Below, piece after piece: positions 1,602 to 45,867 of a stretch of DNA of 64,000 nucleotides. Origin of the DNA: a virus (lineage: Duplodnaviria; Caudoviricetes). The first letter of the stretch is position 1; each line of letters opens with the position of its first letter. The translations under genes and the position numbers were made by a program. Under the pieces are notes generated by a model. The model did not search any database. It was not told the DNA's origin and saw only the letters and a list, made by a program, of their open reading frames with translations. The DNA lies in IMG/VR virus record IMGVR_UViG_3300014205_000174. One strand, 5' to 3'.

Positions 1602-1902
1602 GCTTGGTTTGTTTTAAGATTTAAACTATTTTTTTTATTTACTTCACTTTATCCCTTCCTGGATAATCATCCAGGAAAACTAAAATATTGTCAATGTTAT
1701 CAATCCTTTCTGCATTATCGGTAAGTTGCGCCTGTATTATCTTCTTCTCCTCCCCGCGCAGAAAATAGTCTTCGTCAAATCTGTTTTTACCCATTGTGTG
1801 TGATGTGATTTTTATGAATTCACTTTCCTTGTTTGTTGCACCTACTTTTTCATGCTTTAATTTCGTCTCCTTACCAAGGATAGTCAGGTAAGAGAGCGCA
1901 GT

Positions 1903-2169
1903 GTTGTAACTACCTTTTGAATGACCTGCAATTATAGTATTGCGACTTATTGTCTGGTTACTTAGTTCTAAAGGGTTGTAACTACCTTTTAAATTACCGA
2001 CTCTCACAACTAAATTTACCGCCAGGGGTTTTATTGTCCAGTTGTAACTACCTTTCAAATTAGGGCCTGCTACAACACATATTTTAATTGCCTGTTTGCA
2101 ATAGTAGTTGTAACTACCTTTCAAATTAGGGCCTTTTACAACTACTGACAGGGTAGCTATCATCTATCA
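1903..2169 (-). CRISPR. Mini-CRISPR array C: 3 intact 36-nt repeats, 1 degenerate repeat, 4 spacers
   Basis: Repeats at 2107-2142, 2041-2076, 1975-2010 and degenerate 1903-1938 (- strand e.g. GTTGTAAAAGGCCCTAATTTGAAAGGTAGTTACAAC); spacers of 27, 30, 30 and 36 nt. Confidence 0.92.
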
Positions 2170-2295
2170 GTTGCAACTACAACTACCTTAAAAGGCAAAT
2201 ATTTTAAAAAATAAAAAAAGTATTCGGGAGTGGCTAATAATCCCTCCCGCCAAGGACGTACAACCGCCCCACAAAATATTATGTCAAAGAACTTA
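2170..2295 (-). ncRNA. Guide-RNA scaffold copy C (tracr/omegaRNA-like, fused to a half-repeat)
   Basis: Reverse complement is nearly identical to 27107-27232 and 27694-27818; differences lie mainly in a hairpin loop and the anti-repeat/half-repeat end. Confidence 0.85.
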
Positions 2296-2899
2296 GTTTA
2301 CTATAATTACTGCCACTTCGACCGCCCGTATGTCTGAATCAATCTCATGGCCTTTTCTTCCATCCTGCTGATGCCCCTGCTACACGTATTCCTGTATTTG
2401 TTTCTGCACCTTTTTACGTAATAATGAAGCACTGACAGTAAGCTATAATTTTCACCTTTGCGAATACCTGCAATAGTCATGTTGTAGGCATTTATAAAGT
2501 TCCGCCACTGGCCCCGCATTATCATACTGCGGCAAATCTCCCGGCCTTCTATTTTTACTATTTGCGATATCTCCTTCGTAGTTATTACTGATAAGAACTT
2601 TCGTTTTCCTTACACTCAACACATACCTCAAACTCCTCGCTCATGTCCGACCGGACATTCCAGAAACCGCACCTTACGCACCGGTAAACAGCCGCCTTTA
2701 TCGCCTCGTGCTCCTGTTCGGTTAAAATGCCTATACCGTATCCTGGGTATACACTGTCAATAGCCTGGCTAATGCCATCCGTGGTTTGCGGCAATTGCTT
2801 GATGACCGCATTTACGTCAAAATTCGCTGGGCGCGTAATATTATGCTGCATAGTGTGTGATTTAAACAGAGAAAGAATTGCATGCAATCAAGCCAGAAG

Positions 2900-3151
2900 C
2901 TACTTCATCTCCGGCCAATCCCAATATCCCAACTGCCCCTGCTTCCAGTTTGATTTATGCGGCACATTTTCAACATAATTTACAGGGTCATTATAATTCG
3001 GGAGCAGCACGTGCAAATCAAGAAAAATGTCGGTAGAATCACTCGACACCGTGGCCGGAAATTTTACAAAGCCATTATTTTCGGATGGCGAACAATCCAT
3101 TGGAAAATAATGCACGGCCCTGCCGCATGTTGGAATTTTTACTTCACTCAT
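2900..3151 (-). CDS. Small conserved phage protein
   Basis: PTxGRxVHY...PA.V...W.WP pattern common in phage hypothetical proteins. Confidence 0.45.
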   Translation of the reverse strand: MSEVKIPTCGRAVHYFPMDCSPSENNGFVKFPATVSSDSTDIFLDLHVLLPNYNDPVNYVENVPHKSNWKQGQLGYWDWPEMK

Positions 3152-3194
3152 AGTTGGTTTGTTTTTCGATTTAAAATTAATAAATATATTTTAC

Positions 3195-3443
3195 TTAAGC
3201 AAAATCATTGTGCTTTGTCGGGGTCATTATTTCGTCAATCAGCTCATTCTGCATGGCGTACTTGCAAAATGTACATCCATGCACCCTTGTAGTTACTCCA
3301 TTGTTATAAAAATCAAGTATACCGTCAATATCACACAGCTTGAATTGGTCATTAACCCTGTATAGATTCTCTGGCGAAAGCTCTGCGCTGGGACAAACGT
3401 ATACATTTCCGTCCGTAAATACAAAAGGCTTTACCATATGCAT
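3195..3443 (-). pseudogene. C-terminal (SPASM/Twitch-like) fragment of a radical SAM protein
   Basis: KPFVFTDGNVYVC...CTFCKY pattern; no CxxxCxxC core domain upstream. Confidence 0.4.
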
Positions 3444-3617
3444 GTAGCAGTTATGGTTCTTCCTTTCTCCCTTTTAGACTTGATAACATCAACATTCAAC
3501 CTTTCAGCTATCCCAGCAAGATAAGCGGTGTCATAACGATAAATGTCAATTGACTTTAGCGTCTGTAGGCTAATATTCGAAATGTATACTATCGCTAGGT
3601 CTACTGTTTTCATGCGT

Positions 3618-3971
3618 TTAAGTTGTTGGTGTGGTTTTTGAATTATCGATTACATTAATGTCCAAATAAAAATCCGCCCAGATATTCATCGTGTATACAA
3701 CTCTCCCGTTCGGCTTGTCGTAATGAGGAACAGTGTGACTGTCCTTAAATGGATTGTCTGTAAAGCAACCAGATAATGCCGCAACCATTTCCTCTACCGG
3801 CCTAGCGTCTTCCGTCCAGGGCATAGCCATAATATCCATATCACTTGACAGGCTGCCGTGCAGACCCAACGCCCAACCACAATCAAGGGCAGCCTTTCGT
3901 AAGTCCTCAAAGATGCATGCATAAAATGCAGCCTTGCCATTGGTTACTATATGCTCCCTGCTTTTTGCCAT
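3618..3971 (-). CDS. Conserved phage hypothetical protein (nucleotidyltransferase-like motif)
   Basis: GWALGLHGSLSSDMDIMAMPW (GS..DxD). Confidence 0.4.
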   Translation of the reverse strand: MAKSREHIVTNGKAAFYACIFEDLRKAALDCGWALGLHGSLSSDMDIMAMPWTEDARPVEEMVAALSGCFTDNPFKDSHTVPHYDKPNGRVVYTMNIWADFYLDINVIDNSKTTPTT

Positions 3972-3972
3972 A

Positions 3973-4560
3973 CTATTTTTCCCAGCCTAACTTTTTAGCC
4001 GTATTATTGAAAATATCTACAACCTGGTCAGATAAATTGAACCGCACTTGGTTTTTGATAATAGAAAGATAAATATCGCCATTGTCATGTCTTTCGCTGG
4101 CAGCTTTCCAGTCGAAAAACATTTCAATAAGGTCGAACAAGTCAAACCCATTCACGCCATTTTTATAATGCTCCGGGTGGTGGCTGTTATTGGCGTAATG
4201 ATGGTCTAGTGCGACTTTAAGTTCTTTGAGAAACCCTAAGTACTCCTCGCTACCATACGTAGCCCCTGCTAGCTTTGGCGTCCAGACATCAAACAACTCT
4301 TTTTCCGGGCTCGTTAGCTTGGAGTCATCGTGACACCCCGCACGCTTCAGTAATTCACCGGCGGCACCTGACAACAACTGGGCCACGCGCTTAATGTGCA
4401 GCATCGTATCTATCCTGCTGTCATAAACAAGCTCCACTTTCTCTAACTGCTCAAATGAGTGCTGCACAATAGCCCTGTCTGGCATGGATTGAGCCCATGC
4501 ATCCCAATACGTCTCAGCCGTGTAAATTTTATTCGTTTTTTTGTCTATGCGGTATTCCAT
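3973..4560 (-). CDS. DUF5662-family HD-like protein
   Basis: H..RV, HDDSKL, HHY..NSHHPEH, EMFFDW motifs. Confidence 0.7.
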   Translation of the reverse strand: MEYRIDKKTNKIYTAETYWDAWAQSMPDRAIVQHSFEQLEKVELVYDSRIDTMLHIKRVAQLLSGAAGELLKRAGCHDDSKLTSPEKELFDVWTPKLAGATYGSEEYLGFLKELKVALDHHYANNSHHPEHYKNGVNGFDLFDLIEMFFDWKAASERHDNGDIYLSIIKNQVRFNLSDQVVDIFNNTAKKLGWEK

Positions 4561-4561
4561 T

Positions 4562-4849
4562 CTAAATCAGTTGGTTTTTAGCATGTGCCGAAGCGGCCTC
4601 ATCCTGGTCTCTTAATATTTTCAAACTTAGATTGTAGTCCTTAAACTTATTGTACAGCGTTCGCTCTGTGATACCGAGCTCATTGGCAATAAACGCAACA
4701 TCTTTGGTCGGGTGCCGCTTGAATGCACGCTGAATGGTGTCACACTCCATTCGCGCAAGGTTAAGCTTACCGTCACCAAAAGCATAGTAGTCGCCCTTGA
4801 TTCGACGATTTTCTACTACCGGAGTTCGACCGCTTACTGATTCCAACAA
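4562..4849 (-). CDS. Stand-alone Fis-type (HTH_8) DNA-binding protein
   Basis: LNLARMECDTIQRAF...IANELGITERTLYNKFKDYNL resembles the C-terminal HTH of NtrC-type enhancer-binding proteins; no AAA+ domain. Confidence 0.75.
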   Translation of the reverse strand: MLESVSGRTPVVENRRIKGDYYAFGDGKLNLARMECDTIQRAFKRHPTKDVAFIANELGITERTLYNKFKDYNLSLKILRDQDEAASAHAKNQLI

Positions 4850-5757: not shown

Positions 5758-5990
5758 GAGTAAACGGATTAAAAATTGTCGGCAGCATCGTGGCCCTGGG
5801 CAATACTTCCGGGATTATATGACTTTGAGCTATTCTTATGAACAGATACGACAGCTACGCTTACAATAGCTATCAATAAAACCACTACCAGCAAGTCCGA
5901 CCGTCCCTCTTTAGATAATTTAATGTCCATGATTCAAATTTTACATAAAGATACTGATTACGGATAAAAATAACATCAACTACATTGTTT

Positions 5991-6585: not shown

Positions 6586-8436
6586 TTAATAGACCTCGGG
6601 AAACTCCCGTACTGCAAATTCTTCGGGGAATTCGTTGATATCACTACCATGCCGCACTTTCATGCCCATTTTCTTACCAAGGTAAGTGCCCATCTGTTTT
6701 ATAAACACAGGCACGCCGGCTCTTTTACATTGCTGGATAATCTCGCCTATCCAATGACCCTCACAGGGCCGATATCCCCACTTGCCTATCTCGTTGCCGC
6801 TCTCCCCGCCAACAATAACCCAATGAATAAGCGTATAAATGCCTACATAGCCATGACCCCAGTCTTTTGGCGCGGTACCCAGCAGGCCCAAGTTAAGCGG
6901 GCTTAATAATGGCTCACAACTCAGGAAGCGGACTTTCGCCGGTACCTGGCATAGTAATGGCACCCTTTCCTCTGCACGTTCCTGATTCTCCACACTGGTG
7001 CCAAGCCATACATTTTCCCAACCATCACCCCAGTCCGCCGGTAAGTGTTCTAGAATTCGCTCCGGATGCTTTGTGAGTATTTGAAAGATAAGATGAGGAC
7101 ACTTGCGGATAATGTCCCAGGCCTCATGCCTAAAGGAATCAATTTCCGGGTGAAAGAAATCGGTGAGTGACGATGTAAACACCAGTGGCCTGCCACCCCA
7201 TGCCTCAGACTTAGTGCCCTTGTACTTCAGGGGCATATTGAATGTCGCAGGAGCCGTTCTTTTCACAATGCGACCATCATACTTAAACCTGTCACCCTCA
7301 CGCATCATATAGCAATTGTGAACTATAAATCCATTAGCTACAAATGTTTTTGAAGAGGTCTGTATATCAATCAACTCAGTTTCCCCAATATATTTTATGC
7401 CGTAAATAATTTGGTGGTTGGTAGCGGTTCTTTGGCCAGTAACAATGCAGTTTCTTAATAATGCCGGAGTAACTGTTGTAAAAAAATTTACTTTTTCAAC
7501 CAACCCACCGTGAAGAGTAAACACATTGCTAGCATAGCTGTATTTAAACCCCAGTTTATCCAGGCTTTTTGATATATTATCAACTACTTCCTTATTTGCG
7601 ACTACACCCTGAGCAATTCTTAAGGCATTAGTTCTTAATTTTTCGCGTTTTTTGGATTTATACGTACTCATATTCCCCTCTGCGTCAAACATTCCGGAAA
7701 TATAGCCCCTATGCCAATCTATGTCGTCTGTTGGATTATTATAACATTCCAATATTTTACTCAAAACTGGCTGGCTGCGGCTCTCAACTTTATTTATTTT
7801 AGTTTGCCCCTCCTCCGCACTAAATTCCTTTATGTCAAGCACCATATTGAACAATACTTTACAATATAGTACCACCCTGTCAAGTATTACTGTATCACAC
7901 AAAGCAATACGCCAATAACACTGTGGCGATTCCTTCTTCCATACGCTACCCCAGTCCGGACTATATTTGAATGTGCCATCTCCGTCAGTGACGCCAGCGA
8001 TATACCCTTTCATAAAAGTCTCAGTTATTGAATTCCCCTCGTATACATTCAATACATTAAGCTTCGTTTTTGAAACTTTGAGCAGGCTTAACGTCTTCCA
8101 TGGATTTCTTATTCCCAGAGAAAGGAATGGGTGGTCTTCGCTACACACAATTGTTCTGCCATTAGCTATACTTATTTCGAAAGCTGGCTTTACCACGCGA
8201 GATATCGCTTCAACGGTTGCGATTTCAAATTCTCTATATTGATTCGAAGCGTATTCCTGCACGGAAAAAACCTTGTCCCCTACTTGCAGCTCTGACATTT
8301 TTTTCCTTGTATAGTCCGCCATCAATATTATACTATCAGGGTGCAAGCAATTTTTACACCCTTCACTTTTGGGCGTACATCCCCTTGCAAGGTTATAAGT
8401 GATGTCTGTCCACGGTATGTTGGTTCTTGTTCCCAT
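6586..8436 (-). CDS. DUF5131 (phage Gp37/Gp68-like, radical-SAM-related) protein containing an intein
   Basis: TNIPWTDITYN..RGC....EGCKN/CY, SLTDFFH, FQILTKHPER, NVWLGTSVENQ, RFLSCEPLL, WVIVGGESG, VPVFIKQMG. Confidence 0.88.
   Translation of the reverse strand: MGTRTNIPWTDITYNLARGCTPKSEGCKNCLHPDSIILMADYTRKKMSELQVGDKVFSVQEYASNQYREFEIATVEAISRVVKPAFEISIANGRTIVCSEDHPFLSLGIRNPWKTLSLLKVSKTKLNVLNVYEGNSITETFMKGYIAGVTDGDGTFKYSPDWGSVWKKESPQCYWRIALCDTVILDRVVLYCKVLFNMVLDIKEFSAEEGQTKINKVESRSQPVLSKILECYNNPTDDIDWHRGYISGMFDAEGNMSTYKSKKREKLRTNALRIAQGVVANKEVVDNISKSLDKLGFKYSYASNVFTLHGGLVEKVNFFTTVTPALLRNCIVTGQRTATNHQIIYGIKYIGETELIDIQTSSKTFVANGFIVHNCYMMREGDRFKYDGRIVKRTAPATFNMPLKYKGTKSEAWGGRPLVFTSSLTDFFHPEIDSFRHEAWDIIRKCPHLIFQILTKHPERILEHLPADWGDGWENVWLGTSVENQERAEERVPLLCQVPAKVRFLSCEPLLSPLNLGLLGTAPKDWGHGYVGIYTLIHWVIVGGESGNEIGKWGYRPCEGHWIGEIIQQCKRAGVPVFIKQMGTYLGKKMGMKVRHGSDINEFPEEFAVREFPEVY
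7315..8349 (-). mobile_element. Intein (345 aa) with LAGLIDADG homing endonuclease
   Basis: Starts CLHPDSIILMAD, block B CSEDHPF, two motifs GYIAGVTDGDG and GYISGMFDAEG, ends TFVANGFIVHN followed by Cys. Confidence 0.92.
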
Positions 8437-10419: not shown

Positions 10420-11034
10420 TTATTTGCCTTGGTATTGAAATGAAAGTTTGTTGTAGTGATTTGCTTCGTATGCCCGCATGCCGTCATCATGGTAAAGAAC
10501 AAAGGATACGATACCTGCATCCAGGGCCATCTTGCTGCACATCGTACAGTATGGCTCGCCGCAGCTCACCGGCTTGTCGTTTTCGTCTATGCGCACAAAA
10601 TAAAGCCTACAGCCTACGGTATTGAACTTGCCGGCATTCATTATAGCGCGTTGCTCCGCATGTATGCAGCAGGTGCGGTCGCTCTTGAAATCTTTTGGTA
10701 TACTGTCCTTGAAACAGGCCTCATCAACACACAATGGCATTGAATTAAAACCTTGGCCAACTATTACCCCATTCGGACTTACAATAACAGAACCGCACCG
10801 GGAACGTCTACAGGTGGCCATCTTAGCAAGCTCTATGCACTCGTGTATATAACGCTGCACCGACTCCAGCGGAACTACCCTGTAGTCGGAACCAGATTTA
10901 TGATTACTCTTTGCAGGCCGGCGGCGCTTAATGTACCGGAACAAGTCCTCCCCAAATCGAACTACAAATGTCAATACAGCGACAAATACAAATATTATAT
11001 AAAGTCGGTTTTCGGAAGTTGTTATGCTCATCAT
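10420..11034 (-). CDS. dCMP/cytidine deaminase-family protein
   Basis: C.R..CGSVIV..GFN, HAEQRAI, PYCTMC zinc-binding motifs; true start probably downstream of the annotated one. Confidence 0.8.
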   Translation of the reverse strand: MMSITTSENRLYIIFVFVAVLTFVVRFGEDLFRYIKRRRPAKSNHKSGSDYRVVPLESVQRYIHECIELAKMATCRRSRCGSVIVSPNGVIVGQGFNSMPLCVDEACFKDSIPKDFKSDRTCCIHAEQRAIMNAGKFNTVGCRLYFVRIDENDKPVSCGEPYCTMCSKMALDAGIVSFVLYHDDGMRAYEANHYNKLSFQYQGK

Positions 11035-11246
11035 GCTACGTGCTTATATTGTTTACCGGTTAATTCCTTGTATTCATACTCCAGGTTAATGACCAACAGC
11101 GCATACTCCTTTACCAGATAATATTTCGCATATGCCCGCATATCCGGCGAGCTGTGATGCATGGAGCATATGATATATTTATCCAGCGCCTCATGCGCGT
11201 CGTATACTTCCTGCCGCAGCTTCTTCTGTTCTATTACTTTCATATT

Positions 11247-11837: not shown

Positions 11838-13977
11838 CCGATTAATATTTTTGTTTGCTTCAAAGATAACAATGTTTCGAATATTATATACTATGCGTCT
11901 TTTTTATTTGGTCAAAATAGTCCACTTCTTTTAACAATGATGCCGTATCCTGCCACCCATTCTTGGTTTTCTCGTAACCAACCCACGTATATTCGACGCC
12001 TTTCTCTGTTTTTGTGGTAACCCCTTCGACGGGGACAGTTACCGTTTCTCCAATAATAAAACTGGTGCTGTATTGCATGGGTAGCCTGTTCCAGACATCA
12101 TTCATAGCTTTTCGCGCAGCATCTAATGTCACCGCCTCAATGAGAATTGGGTCATTTATGCCAGAAAAGTAGAATTTATATATTTTAACCCCGTTGTAAT
12201 CTCTCATCACCATGTACCTTCCGGCCTGATTTTAAAATATACCGACCAATGCTCCTTTGGAAAACGCCCATGCCACATGCCCGTACCCGCACGGCTCCCG
12301 TCGCTATATTGGAGCGGCGTGCACTCGGAGCATAGTTGCTTGCCAATTAACTCGTCAGGCAGTGACCCTGGAGCAAAGGCAACCATACTTCGTCCCCAGT
12401 AATGACCGCAGGCCGTATTTTCAACACAATCGCATTTCGCACAAACAAATAGTGGCATTCTGTAAAGATATAATCCAATTCGTTAATAAACGTTCTGCGA
12501 CTTCCCATTATGTATTGTCGGCCTACTAAAAATTCGGTTTTTATTTTCTTTATCCCACTTAGCCTTCAATTCACAATGGTTTTTATACTCTTGCTTTTCA
12601 TACCTCAGTAAATACCCGTAGGTTCTAAACTGTTTCGCAAATGAAACCGCATCGGGAAAGCGCCTAAAGGATTTCACCTCATAATAAGAGGAATAGTATG
12701 GCGTGTTTTTATGGTCATAACCCACATAGGTTGCCTGATATTTTATAACGTCAGAATGCAACCAGTTATCATTAGTATAGAGTACTACATAATTATTAAC
12801 CCAAGCATCGCTTACCTGGTCTTTATGCACTGGATTTGGTATTACTTTCACATGATATTGAGCAGATGCTATCGCATGGTAAATCACAAAAATAAATGCA
12901 AGTGTTATTTTATTCATTGTTACTTAGTTTTTATTGTTCCTCAATAGCTATTCCTTCGTCAATCAAACTCCGGACAGGCCCCCAGCCGCAGTCGTAGTAT
13001 TCTCCGCGCAGAAAATCAAATATTGGTAGTGAGTATTCTATGATTTCAAAACTCTCCTCGTGAATGCGGATATTGCTCGGGGTAAAGTATATTTTAATGC
13101 TGCGTTTTTTATTTGATTTACCTATAGCTCCGTTGTCGCCATCAATATTAAGGCATTGCTCTGTACGTGTGATAACGGGATTGTGTATACCGGCCAATCT
13201 GGCTATTTCCAGTCCGTGCTCGTCCGTTATCGTATATAGGCGCTTGAGGATGAGCTTGTGTGGGCAATGACCAATGCTATATGCGTGCAATGAGCACCAT
13301 TGTCCTGTTTCTTTTACCTGGAAAGCAGAGCTATTTACGCTATACAAAGTAAGAATATGGTCGACATCTATTAAGGTAAAGGCGTCGTCGGAACCATCAT
13401 CTTTTGATGGCAATTCACCCATTTGTATGCGAGCCCCAATATAGGATGCAAAAATTCTATGCAATACGCCGTCTATCATGGTTTTTTAAAATAATTTCAG
13501 TAAAACAATAGCGTAATAATAAGGATTCACACCCACACTACGCGCCCTCGCGCATAGCGATTCATATGGATTTGCAAACCCTGCGTTATTTTCACCGTAA
13601 GACTGGTACAATTCATATGGAATATCCGAAATGCGCTCAGCTATACTTTGACAATATTCATGATTATCCCTAATTTTAGACAAGGAGCCAAGCAACCTCC
13701 ACCTGCCGGTCGGCAATAATATCACTTCCGATTCATTTGGGCCTTCGCAAAACGGGCCTAGCGGATATACTATATCTAACTTATTGTCATGCAAGTGCAC
13801 TGTAAGCGTAAATTGATTTAAACCCACAAACAACAAATTTCCTGCTTCTCTTAAACGATTATCCATTTTTTCATATTAAATATCAATAATACTCCCTACC
13901 TTTATGCTGCTTTTGTTTCCATTACCAAGGTAATTCTTTGTTGGATTTGTTCCCATAAAGGTATTTTAAGGTGTTTA

Positions 13978-25942: not shown

Positions 25943-27094
25943 ATGGCTGAAAAACGTATAGTTATTACCCGGAAAGTAAAAATAGACTTTGACGTTGCCG
26001 ACAAGGCCGCATTAAAGGAGTGCTATAATACCGTGTTCTCATGGAACCGGATAGTGCACAAGGCCGCAAACTGGATAATCACGCACCAGTACATGCAGGA
26101 AAACGTAAAGGACTTCTTCTACATTACAGATGCGATAAAGCTGAAGCTGGCCAACATCGACAAAGACGAGGACGGCATACTCACCACCAGCAAGGACAAT
26201 ACCACCTACCAGTTGCTTAGCAAAGCATTTAAGGGGGAATGCCCGATGGGTATGCTATCCGGCCTTAATACGGTTGTGTGCAAGAAATACAAGTCCGATG
26301 CCTTCAAAATAAAGAAAGGCGAAGTCTCCCTTGCCTCTTACCGCAGAAATATCCCTATGCCCATCCGGAGCGCGGATATCTCTTCCTGGGAAAAGCAAAG
26401 TGATGGCAACTATTCATTTTTCGTATACGGCCTGGCTTTCAAAACATGGTTTGGCAAAGACCTGAGCGACAACCAGTCAATATTCGACCGCGCACTGCAA
26501 ACCGGCGAGTATAAGCTTTGTGATTCATCCTTTCAACTGGAAAAGAAAGACGGTAAGTGGAAGATGTTTTTCCTGGCAGTATTCTCCTTTGACAAGGAGC
26601 TTGTTAAGGTGGATGAAAATAAAGCCGCTGTTTGCCGGCTTAGTATACAATACCCGATTGTTATTGCAGAAAAGAAAGACAAGTTCTGGCATATCGGCAC
26701 CGCTGAAGAATATATGCACCGCAGGCTGGCCATACGCGGCGCTTTACACAGGGTTCAAAAAGCCTGTAAGTATAATAAAGGGGGTAAGGGCCGGGACAAA
26801 AAGCTACATGCCATAGAGCGCTTTGAAGACGCTGAAAGCAATTACATTAATAGCCGCATGCACCTTTATAGCCGACAGCTAATTGATTACTGCATAAAGC
26901 GCGGTATCGGCAAGATTGTACTCGACAACTACAAGGAGGTTGTTGACAAGACACATCAGGAGAATGAGGAAAGTAAATTTTTGCTGAGCTCATGGAGTTA
27001 CTTTAATTTAGCTGATAAAATAAAATACAAGGCTGCAAAAGTGGGCATATTGGTGGAGATGGAAGGAGACCCGGAGCCCGAGCCAGTAATTTAG
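25943..27094 (+). CDS. Nuclease-dead Cas12f/TnpB-like RNA-guided DNA-binding protein
   Basis: ITRKVKI N-terminus, G..SL.SYR, YKLCDSS, bridge-helix region RRLAI...GGKGR.KKL, H.YSR.LIDYC, WSYF.L.DKIKYKA...GI.V; RuvC-I position reads CRLSIQYP (no Asp), RuvC-II region IVLDNY; protein ends before the Zn-finger/RuvC-III; directly followed by scaffold and CRISPR array. Confidence 0.85.
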   Translation: MAEKRIVITRKVKIDFDVADKAALKECYNTVFSWNRIVHKAANWIITHQYMQENVKDFFYITDAIKLKLANIDKDEDGILTTSKDNTTYQLLSKAFKGECPMGMLSGLNTVVCKKYKSDAFKIKKGEVSLASYRRNIPMPIRSADISSWEKQSDGNYSFFVYGLAFKTWFGKDLSDNQSIFDRALQTGEYKLCDSSFQLEKKDGKWKMFFLAVFSFDKELVKVDENKAAVCRLSIQYPIVIAEKKDKFWHIGTAEEYMHRRLAIRGALHRVQKACKYNKGGKGRDKKLHAIERFEDAESNYINSRMHLYSRQLIDYCIKRGIGKIVLDNYKEVVDKTHQENEESKFLLSSWSYFNLADKIKYKAAKVGILVEMEGDPEPEPVI

Positions 27095-27106: not shown

Positions 27107-27232
27107 TAAGTTCTTTGACATAATATTTTGTGGGGCGGTTGTACGTCCTTGGCGGGAGGGATTCTTTTCCACTCCCGAATACTTTTTTTATTTTTTAATG
27201 ATATTTGCCTTTGTTTGAAAGGTAGCTACAAC
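27107..27232 (+). ncRNA. Guide-RNA scaffold copy A (tracr/omegaRNA-like, fused to a half-repeat)
   Basis: Starts 12 nt after the cas12f-like stop; hairpins GGGGCG-GTTGTA-CGTCCT and CGGGAG..CTCCCG; anti-repeat TTTGCCTTT pairs with half-repeat AAAGGTAG; three copies in the window. Confidence 0.85.
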
Positions 27233-27424
27233 GGTAAGCCGTCGTCTACGGGCACTGTGAGTTGTAAATGACCAGGATTTGAAAGGTAGCTACAACCTTA
27301 GTCGCACAAAAGGGAGCGACCTGCATGGCTGTAAAAGACCGGAATTTGAAAGGTAGTTACAACAACCAGAGGATAACGGTTTCACGATATTGTGAATGAC
27401 CATAATTTGAAAGGTAGTTACAAC
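27214..27424 (+). CRISPR. Mini-CRISPR array A: half-repeat, 3 full repeats, 3 bounded spacers
   Basis: Half-repeat 27214-27232; repeats 27261-27296, 27328-27363, 27389-27424; spacers of 28, 31 and 25 nt; a possible 4th spacer up to a GTTGT remnant near 27453. Confidence 0.93.
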
Positions 27425-27461
27425 GAATGGTAACGGTTTTACTTAAACAGAAAGTTGTTTT

Positions 27462-27693: not shown

Positions 27694-27818
27694 TAAGTTC
27701 TTTGACATAATATTTTGTGGGGCGGTTGTACGTCCTTGGCGGGAGGGATTCTTTTCCACTCCCGAATACTTTTTTATTTTTTAAGGTATTTGCCTTTGTT
27801 TTGAAAGGTAGTTACAAC
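27694..27818 (+). ncRNA. Guide-RNA scaffold copy B
   Basis: Nearly identical to 27107-27232, ending in TTTGAAAGGTAGTTACAAC. Confidence 0.85.
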
Positions 27819-28092
27819 GATTAATAGTTCAAGTTCACTGATTTTTAGTTGTATAAGACCATAATTTGAAGGGTAGTTACAACACATAAGCTACTACAAG
27901 AAGCATTTTCACTGTTGTGAAAGACCCGAATTTAAAAGGTAGTTACAACGTACATTCATTGGGCTAAATTTTGATTTGGCTGTAAAAGACCCAAATTCAA
28001 AAAGTAGCTACAACTAAAGCAGTGATATAAAACATCATGGGCCTGTGTTCACGTTACGTGAACGACCATTAAACCAGTTTAAGTAGCTACAC
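27800..28092 (+). CRISPR. Mini-CRISPR array B: half-repeat, 3 full repeats and a degenerate terminal repeat
   Basis: Repeats 27848-27883, 27914-27949, 27979-28014; spacers of 29, 30 and 29 nt; remnant AAGTAGCTACAC at 28081-28092. Confidence 0.92.
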
Positions 28093-45376: not shown

Positions 45377-45867
45377 GAATTTGTTAGAAAGTGTAAAAAA
45401 TCTTTCTTTACTTTGTCCCCCTCCAATTAGTTTTTTATGTCCGTGATAACAAGGAAGCATATAGATATGGCCTCGAAGCTATACAAGATGATGGATTATG
45501 TAAAAGAAGCCAGATTACGGAGCCCGGATACATACAAAACCGTAGAGACGCTGCTTAAGAACTACTCCGCAGCACACAAACTTACTATCCTGGAAGCAGC
45601 AATAGAAATAGCAAAAGACCACGAAGGGATGCAAGTCATGTGGCTTCTGGGTGTAGCGGGTATCCTATCAGAAGAAAAAGAAGACGCGCCAGCCCCAACT
45701 TAGTTATCCCACGCCAGCCCCAAACCACTATCAATAAATTAAACACCACTTACCTCCACATCCTACCTCATTAACTACCAGCAACTTACAACGCAATTAC
45801 TTTTTTATCGAAACCTAACTACAGTCCGCAATGGCCTTTTTTTTATCTCAAAAACTCTTTGTCGCTT

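Follow-up and report, generated by a model that had tools for sequence, protein, structure and literature searches.

An array of CRISPR guides that lies far from any effector gene raises the question of whether it is a working part of a system or something left behind. We examined such a locus in a 64,000-nt stretch of phage DNA (the window), which covers positions 64,001-128,000 of the 211,455-bp ENA contig k141_2451761 from a landfill metagenome (run SRR6484325). In a search for sequencing runs that contain this DNA, one DNA run and no RNA run was found. The minus strand of the window at 1835-2295 was found to carry a third copy of a scaffold RNA, followed by an altered half-repeat, a mini-array with five spacers and a degenerate terminal repeat. 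The initial annotation of this locus, here cassette C, had recorded a complete scaffold with a four-spacer array, 25 kb from the effector gene and on the opposite strand. The scaffold, the array and the opposite strand were borne out, but the array has five spacers and extends to 1835, and the distance to the start of the effector gene, dcas12f, is 23.6 kb. No Pfam, Cas or TnpB match was detected for the ORFs that flank the cassette (498-1601, 1639-1794, 2307-2525 and 2585-4849), in agreement with the earlier statement that no cas gene adjoins it. Cassette C is an orphan (isolated) CRISPR array, with the nearest effector gene at the distance given above. Its 367-aa neighbour is an ORFan, and a search for synteny through homologues of this protein found none. 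A 174-aa ORF (1639-2163, minus strand) reported by the ENA and Logan gene callers crosses the array; it is probably spurious, since only its last 51 codons, the 51-aa ORF 1639-1794, lie outside the repeats. Further along the minus strand (6586-8436), a DUF5131 (phage Gp37/Gp68-like) gene is split by an intein, which carries a homing endonuclease domain of LAGLIDADG-like type.

Scaffold C is a structured RNA similar to a tracrRNA or an omegaRNA. It occupies 2194-2295 on the minus strand and was delimited by alignment with the two other copies (A and B) and by its match to R1, a covariance model of the scaffold. The 102-nt block runs from TAAGTTCTTTGACA, a conserved motif of the 5' part, at 2295 to TATTTGCC at 2194, and comprises a first stem with the loop GUUGUA, a second stem (GGGAGGG...CCACUCCC), a U-rich tract and a GCC(U)UUU anti-repeat. 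The altered half-repeat of the first, fused guide unit, TTTTAAGGTAGTTGTAGTTGCAAC, was placed at 2170-2193 by sequence, alignment and fold, and leads into spacer C1 (2143-2169). Downstream on the same strand are repeat 2 (2107-2142), with its 3' handle TTTGAAAGGTAGTTACAAC intact, spacer C2 (2077-2106), repeat 3 (2041-2076), spacer C3 (2011-2040), repeat 4 (1975-2010), spacer C4 (1939-1974, giving a 72-nt period), repeat 5 (1903-1938), which has a degenerate 5' half and a 3' handle matching at 17 of 19 positions, and spacer C5 (1871-1902). The cassette has four full repeats of 36 nt each (2142-1903); the degenerate terminal repeat (1835-1870) has the 3' end AAAGTAGGTGCAAC at 1848-1835, 68 nt past the end of the previous repeat. 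The 3' motif of the repeats occurs 12 times in the window, against 0.25 occurrences expected.

The duplication AACTAC AACTAC that had been noticed earlier in the half-repeat is present; on the cassette strand it reads GTAGTT GTAGTT. In addition to this 6-nt duplication, 6 nt are deleted from the anti-repeat hairpin, and the total length is kept (27 nt vs 26). The predicted fold of the first unit has a stem of 4 bp instead of ~7 bp and a new local hairpin, AGUUGU-AGUU-GCAACU, which can be formed by the duplication and sequesters the pseudoknot strand. The pseudoknot pairing of this unit is kept through a G-U wobble. Since the hairpin is shortened and the duplication is able to sequester the pseudoknot strand, the C1 guide may, on this folding model, be dead.

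We aligned 11 scaffold sequences, from the window and seven IMG/VR loci, over two stems and detected compensatory changes in 9 of the 14 pairs. Judged from this covariation, the scaffold is a real structured RNA. The top-scoring R1 match in the window fell on scaffold C (2208-2275; 71.2 bits, E 2.6e-27). The loop of stem 1 was complementary to the six bases at the end of the local repeat (GUUGUA/UACAAC in cassette C), and loop and repeat end covaried in five variants: GUUGUA/UACAAC in the window and in locus L011, UUGUAU/AUACAA in L008, GUUCG/CGAAC in L010, GCUGUA/UACAGC in L014 and GUUGUG/CACAAC in L001. In L008 and L012 a stretch without spacers separates the scaffold from the full repeats, in the manner of a tracrRNA gene, whereas in this phage the scaffold is fused to the first guide. 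An Rfam search returned only a sub-threshold match to CRISPR-DR34, and scans of IMG/VR and the JGI metagenomes with a scaffold pattern returned no match.

The two other cassettes lie on the plus strand. Cassette A (27107-27455) consists of a scaffold (27107-27209), a half-repeat ending at 27232, three repeats and four spacers; cassette B (27694-28084) consists of a scaffold (27694-27794), a half-repeat ending at 27818, three repeats, four spacers and a degenerate terminal repeat. Scaffold C was identical to copy A at 98 of 103 positions and to copy B at 96 of 102, and the three scaffolds were mutually 94-97% identical, an identity that could stem from recent copying or gene conversion instead of selection. 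The three substitutions between C and A fall in or beside the loop of the second hairpin and loosen at most the innermost A-U pair; the few remaining differences lie in the U/A-rich linker. The stems of scaffold C are intact, and to that extent the scaffold can be called complete, as it had been; the term carries a caveat for the first fused guide unit because this unit is structurally altered. The spacers of C had been said to differ from those of A and B, and indeed none of the 13 spacers is common to the arrays, the closest pair agreeing at 19 of 33 positions. The ten full repeats of this phage were 91% alike in their 3' halves and 66% alike in their 5' halves, and the four handles of cassette C matched at 17 to 19 of 19 positions. 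This is the pattern expected if the mature guide retains the 3' handle alone.

A motif, (G)TTCTTTGACA, was observed before the scaffold in all three cassettes (2278-2291, 27111-27124 and 27698-27711) and also in the relatives L012, L013, L008 and L010, in the last of which it stands between scaffold and array. With up to two mismatches allowed, it had 14 matches in the window against 2.4 expected; we looked for a consistent promoter context at the extra sites in the window and saw none. A promoter element, a boxA-like site and a part of the RNA are candidates for its role. A promoter and terminator scan gave nothing above shuffled sequences, and stem 2 with its T-run was not called as a terminator.

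It had been proposed that the scaffold and its array form a modular unit that has been copied into different transcription units, and that relatives should be scanned for further scaffold copies. R1 found exactly three copies in the window and no further copy on 28.5 kb of the same contig outside it. Between one and six copies were found in each related viral locus, and 143 in 80 bacterial loci, with up to 12 per locus, several cassettes at a locus being the usual state. All but one of the bacterial copies were on the strand of dcas12f, and nearly all lay within ~3 kb of that gene. Two complete Sphingobacteriaceae genomes each had an R1 match (G007:C1:4699265 and G009:C1:4030588) hundreds of kb from the dcas12f locus that was examined, each a candidate for either a stray cassette or a second dcas12f locus. 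The viral locus L010 contained a 300-nt duplication (10919-11218 and 12135-12434, 99% identical) that takes in the scaffold together with the final 180 nt of dcas12f and the first part of the array, and this appears to be a fresh example of cassette multiplication. The best parallel came from the 21.8-kb viral record G005, which, with a dCas12f 48% identical to that of the phage, carried two minus-strand cassettes directly downstream of dcas12f and a third on the plus strand (1431-1496), 16.9 kb from dcas12f and opposite to it. The stray cassette of G005 (L021 1431-1600) has a scaffold, its own repeat and spacers and a partial repeat, with a small ORF behind it; the small ORF ahead of the proximal cassette is partly copied as well, its 3' end falling within the duplicated segment. 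Given this parallel, the genome studied here is not alone in having a stray cassette on the opposite strand. Taken together with three nearly identical scaffolds that serve unrelated spacers, these sequence comparisons support the proposal of a modular, copied unit. The genes of the window run leftward up to ~14.6 kb and rightward from ~14.9 kb, and cassette C and dcas12f are each co-oriented with the genes of their own arm. From these gene directions, cassette C and dcas12f lie in divergent arms, in line with the earlier suggestion of different transcription units.

We searched for targets of the spacers at several levels. The 13 spacers gave nothing beyond chance in 92.5 kb of the phage genome (44% of it; record positions 54,498-147,033), where the thresholds for the window and the further stretches of the contig were 14/1, 16/2 and 20/4 mismatches and at least 70% ungapped identity. 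Array C had only chance-level matches (E of at least 0.3) among the INPHARED phages, in which the window itself has no entry. No exact 22-mer of C1, C4 or C5 was found in IMG/VR and none of C3 in the JGI metagenomes, and five Chitinophagaceae genomes gave no match to C1-C5 or A1-A3 at up to three mismatches in 24 nt. Altogether, no target was found for the spacers of cassette C, a scan of 401 Chitinophagaceae genomes included. In that family, C2 together with the start of repeat 3 (2065-2098) resembled a site in genome G384 (L120 ~1501-1534) at 30 of 34 positions, a weaker match that is antisense to the first codons of an M49 peptidase lipoprotein gene. The three positions at which repeat 3 leaves the repeat consensus also agree with this site. 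The first eight guide bases are mismatched, so the site is not a usable C2 target in that genome.

Spacer B3 (27950-27977) matched the Chitinophagaceae genome G407 (L127 1151-1178) at 26 of 28 positions from its first base. A 287-aa gene of unknown family contains the site and is flanked by a Sua5/YrdC-like gene and by RNase HII. It was the single notable match in the 401 genomes, where we estimate that 0.002-0.02 would be expected by chance, and was found in G407 alone among the 11 genomes of its genus. Going by this sequence match, B3 may hint at a gene targeted in the host and at which host that is. Spacer B4 matched the dcas12f gene within its first 90 nt (26013-26028, plus strand) at 14 of its first 16 bases and at 19 of 30 overall; the match may be due to chance, as ~0.4 such matches are expected across the window for 13 spacers. 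It is of note because self-regulating guides have been reported for dCas12f-sigmaE loci and because a spacer of the related phage G001 matches the gene directly upstream of dcas12f there (see below).

The reading that we consider probable, if far from certain, is that cassette C is a genuine and selectively maintained guide-RNA cassette of the phage's nuclease-dead Cas12f, situated away from the protein gene. That it is instead a decaying, non-functional relic, left behind when a dcas12f locus was duplicated or moved, or carried along as a passenger copy, with no working guides, is unlikely, although several features point that way. The first unit is altered by both a duplication and a deletion, repeat 5 and the terminal repeat are degenerate, and the sequences searched hold no target for its spacers; in addition, a possible vestige of the 3' end of dcas12f (CAGTAATT-TAG) lies directly upstream of scaffold C. 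On the other hand, the stems of the scaffold have stayed intact, and the 3' handle has been preserved in the four full repeats despite the divergence of their unconstrained 5' halves. Arrays A and B are just as heterogeneous in their repeats and likewise have no known targets, and the relative G005 retains a comparable stray cassette. We take these observations to argue for a maintained cassette over a relic.

The presumed user of the cassette is the product of dcas12f (25943-27094, plus strand), a protein of 383 aa. Residues 5-369 aligned with PDB chain 9n9c_A, 'Nuclease-deactivated Cas12f' (E 6.5e-81, 275 bits). The protein also aligned with active Cas12f chains; it has an arginine at the position of their RuvC-I aspartate and is truncated at the C terminus, ending before the RuvC-III and zinc-finger part. 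By these sequence features, it is a nuclease-dead Cas12f. Pfam gave nothing above threshold for this protein, and NCBIfam gave only sub-threshold TnpB and Cas12f matches. The scanned ORFs around dcas12f and around cassette C included no Cas family. As for canonical type V-F immunity, the RuvC domain is not catalytically competent, adaptation genes (cas1, cas2 or cas4) were not found nearby and the repeats are non-uniform. A 399-aa IS605-type TnpB with all three Pfam TnpB domains is encoded a few kb past the end of the window (L005 12838-14037; record ~130.2-131.4 kb). We considered the TnpB of this genome as the user of the cassette and rejected it, as it had no meaningful similarity to the dCas12f (E 0.66).

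The best bacterial relatives of the dCas12f were found in Chitinophagaceae MAGs, at 45-47% identity. The best of them (47%) is from the MAG G010 (G010:C2 30757-31884; L121), in which the array beside dcas12f has repeats 96% identical to those of the phage over 23-25 nt. These repeats and the dCas12f match point to the Chitinophagaceae as the donor or host lineage. Homologues with 72% and 59% identity, P0008 and P0023, are encoded on contigs of 199 kb and 316 kb, respectively.

More could be learned from related phages. The complete records G001 and G002 have 58 spacers, five of which match the phage's own genome, with scores of 27/28, 26/28, 26/28, 25/28 and 22/28; the last may be due to chance. 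In G002 (L028-L031) the self-matching spacers lie at 45505, 44851 and 44322 and their targets at 27081, 73293 and 34953, and in G001 (L008) spacer 7574-7603 has its target at 5759-5788. The 27/28 match of G001 lies in the gene directly upstream of its dcas12f. Each of the four best matches falls within a coding region or at a gene's 3' end, and none in upstream intergenic DNA. Six of the eight differences in these four matches are synonymous (binomial ~0.004, an estimate that takes a quarter of random changes to be silent), and by our own count the differences fall mostly in the TAM-proximal 11 nt (p ~0.06). The flanks of the four sites are ATC, CTG, CTG and TTT, with no common TAM. An exact copy of one of the self-matching G002 spacers was sought in IMG/VR and found only in the array of G002 itself. 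Judged by sequence, the self-matching spacers could be taken for a close relative's alleles of the phage's own genes; they may instead be old copies from which the genes have since drifted. The mostly synonymous differences suggest guides directed against sister phages, with the carrier's own allele re-spelled. The TAM-proximal position of the differences would also fit guides of this kind, with the carrier itself spared, but is suggestive only.

We also considered whether the system is an RNA-guided activator like dCas12f-sigmaE, with the C guides marking promoter-less phage or host genes and RNA polymerase recruited through an unrecognized sigma-like partner. This is improbable. The closest solved structure is indeed the dCas12f of a sigmaE-RNAP complex, a 148-aa gene of unknown fold lies 5 nt upstream of dcas12f in operon position, and single chimeric gRNAs similar to the fused first unit are known from dCas12f-sigmaE systems (PMC13472631). 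However, the upstream 148-aa protein resembled no sigma factor in searches of Pfam, NCBIfam, PDB and the ESM Atlas, no rpoE with a C-terminal extension is in an operon with dcas12f, and no neighbour gene was conserved with dcas12f across the nine phage loci that have a homologue. The self-matches of the relatives, moreover, do not lie in intergenic positions upstream of genes. A published cluster of dCas12f genes that lack rpoE and adjoin CRISPR arrays, the arrays being preceded by putative gRNAs, was read as repressive by its authors (Hoffmann et al., Nature 2026, Extended Data Fig. 1a,b; PMC13472631). Since no sigma similarity was found upstream and no neighbour gene is shared, the present system fits this group.

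An assembly artefact had been named earlier as an outcome that would undo the finding, and the scaffold is a repeat within which Logan k=31 unitigs of the same run break, as expected. A 24-kb Logan contig (L004), however, joins array C and the scaffold up to 2268 to the left flank; over the 11.8 kb compared, array C included, it did not differ from the ENA contig (100% identity). On the right flank, a Logan contig of 11.8 kb leads into the scaffold. The shared scaffold unitig spans only 57 nt, far less than the k=141 of the ENA assembly. Its depth was 107 and that of the flanks 34, in keeping with three copies genome-wide, although unitig depth is not strictly a copy number. Some loop variants, the half-repeat and all five spacers, moreover, are found in cassette C alone. 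With two assemblies in agreement and a k-mer depth that fits three copies, a repeat-induced misjoin that misplaced a dcas12f-proximal cassette is very hard to credit.

If cassette C is the maintained guide cassette that we favour, it would be transcribed with or within the leftward gene block and its transcript would be cut into units of a handle plus a spacer. Each unit would then pair with a scaffold, the first in cis and the later ones in trans, and would be loaded onto dCas12f produced from the rightward block. Such complexes would be expected to bind matching DNA without cutting it, and the most likely outcome, given that no sigma partner is present, would be a CRISPRi-like block of transcription or replication at the bound site. 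We infer repression over activation on the one ground that no recognizable sigma gene lies near dcas12f. By analogy with the relatives, the likeliest targets would be genes of close rival phages, or host genes. A more elaborate proposal is that this is a jumbo phage that spreads its dCas12f guide cassettes over two divergent arms, so that the guide sets are timed, and silences genes of co-infecting sister phages or of a Chitinophagaceae-like host without cutting them. We regard this proposal as speculative and rather doubtful as a whole.

To our knowledge, nuclease-dead Cas12f with guide cassettes has been described only in 2025-2026 and only from bacterial chromosomes. The present locus indicates that dCas12f guide machinery is also carried by large viruses, and that a guide cassette with its scaffold behaves as a movable module which can come to lie far from the effector gene, in at least two viral lineages. 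Should sister phages or the host be what the guides target, the system would amount to a natural CRISPRi encoded by a virus; should the reading of timed arms also be true, it would be a time-programmed viral CRISPRi in phage-phage conflict. The cassette could also be of use as a compact natural template for multiplexing dCas12f guides.

We compared the system with those already described. It shares with the rpoE-less dCas12f group a truncated dCas12f without sigmaE, a covarying RNA directly upstream of a CRISPR array and a Bacteroidota lineage, the published example being a Chitinophagaceae MAG (PMC13472631). It differs in being carried by a 211-kb virus with three cassettes, one of them 23.6 kb away and on the opposite strand, and in having the scaffold fused to the first guide. 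Furthermore, the published example targets the promoter of an RND efflux operon (PMC13472631), whereas the spacers of the viral relatives match phage coding genes. With the dCas12f-sigmaE systems, to which the 9n9c structure (Xiao et al.) belongs as part of the work on RNA-guided transcription (PMC13472631; 10.1101/2025.06.10.658880), it has in common the effector family, a guide at the 3' end of a multi-stem scaffold and several tandem gRNAs per locus. The legend of Fig. 3 of the dCas12f-sigmaE preprint mentions an orphan gRNA acting in trans (PMC12259090). Unlike those systems, the present one is in a viral genome, has neither rpoE nor an hth partner, and has its guides in repeat-spacer arrays, with spacers of ~27-36 nt, where those systems use single gRNAs whose guides measure 14-16 nt.

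Compact CRISPR arrays with a median of six repeats have been described from huge phages, with host-gene silencing or the exclusion of competing phages proposed as their roles (Al-Shayeb et al., Nature 2020; PMC7162821). The present arrays are similarly short, are carried by a large phage and have no adaptation genes nearby, but they go with a dead Cas12f that needs a tracr-like scaffold, and the whole cassette is dispersed in the genome. The dCas12f is also similar to TldR, the TnpB-like nuclease-dead repressors used for gene control, in being a small, RuvC-inactivated, RNA-guided DNA binder of the TnpB/Cas12 lineage (Wiegand et al., bioRxiv 10.1101/2023.11.30.569447). TldR has one omegaRNA-derived guide beside its own gene, whereas arrays, several cassettes and a protein of the Cas12f branch are found here. 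Some TldR members are located on prophages. This kind of system, a scaffold and array beside an rpoE-less dCas12f, is already known (Hoffmann et al. 2026); what is new is its viral carrier, the dispersed cassette and a hint that viral arrays hold variants of phage genes that differ at silent sites.
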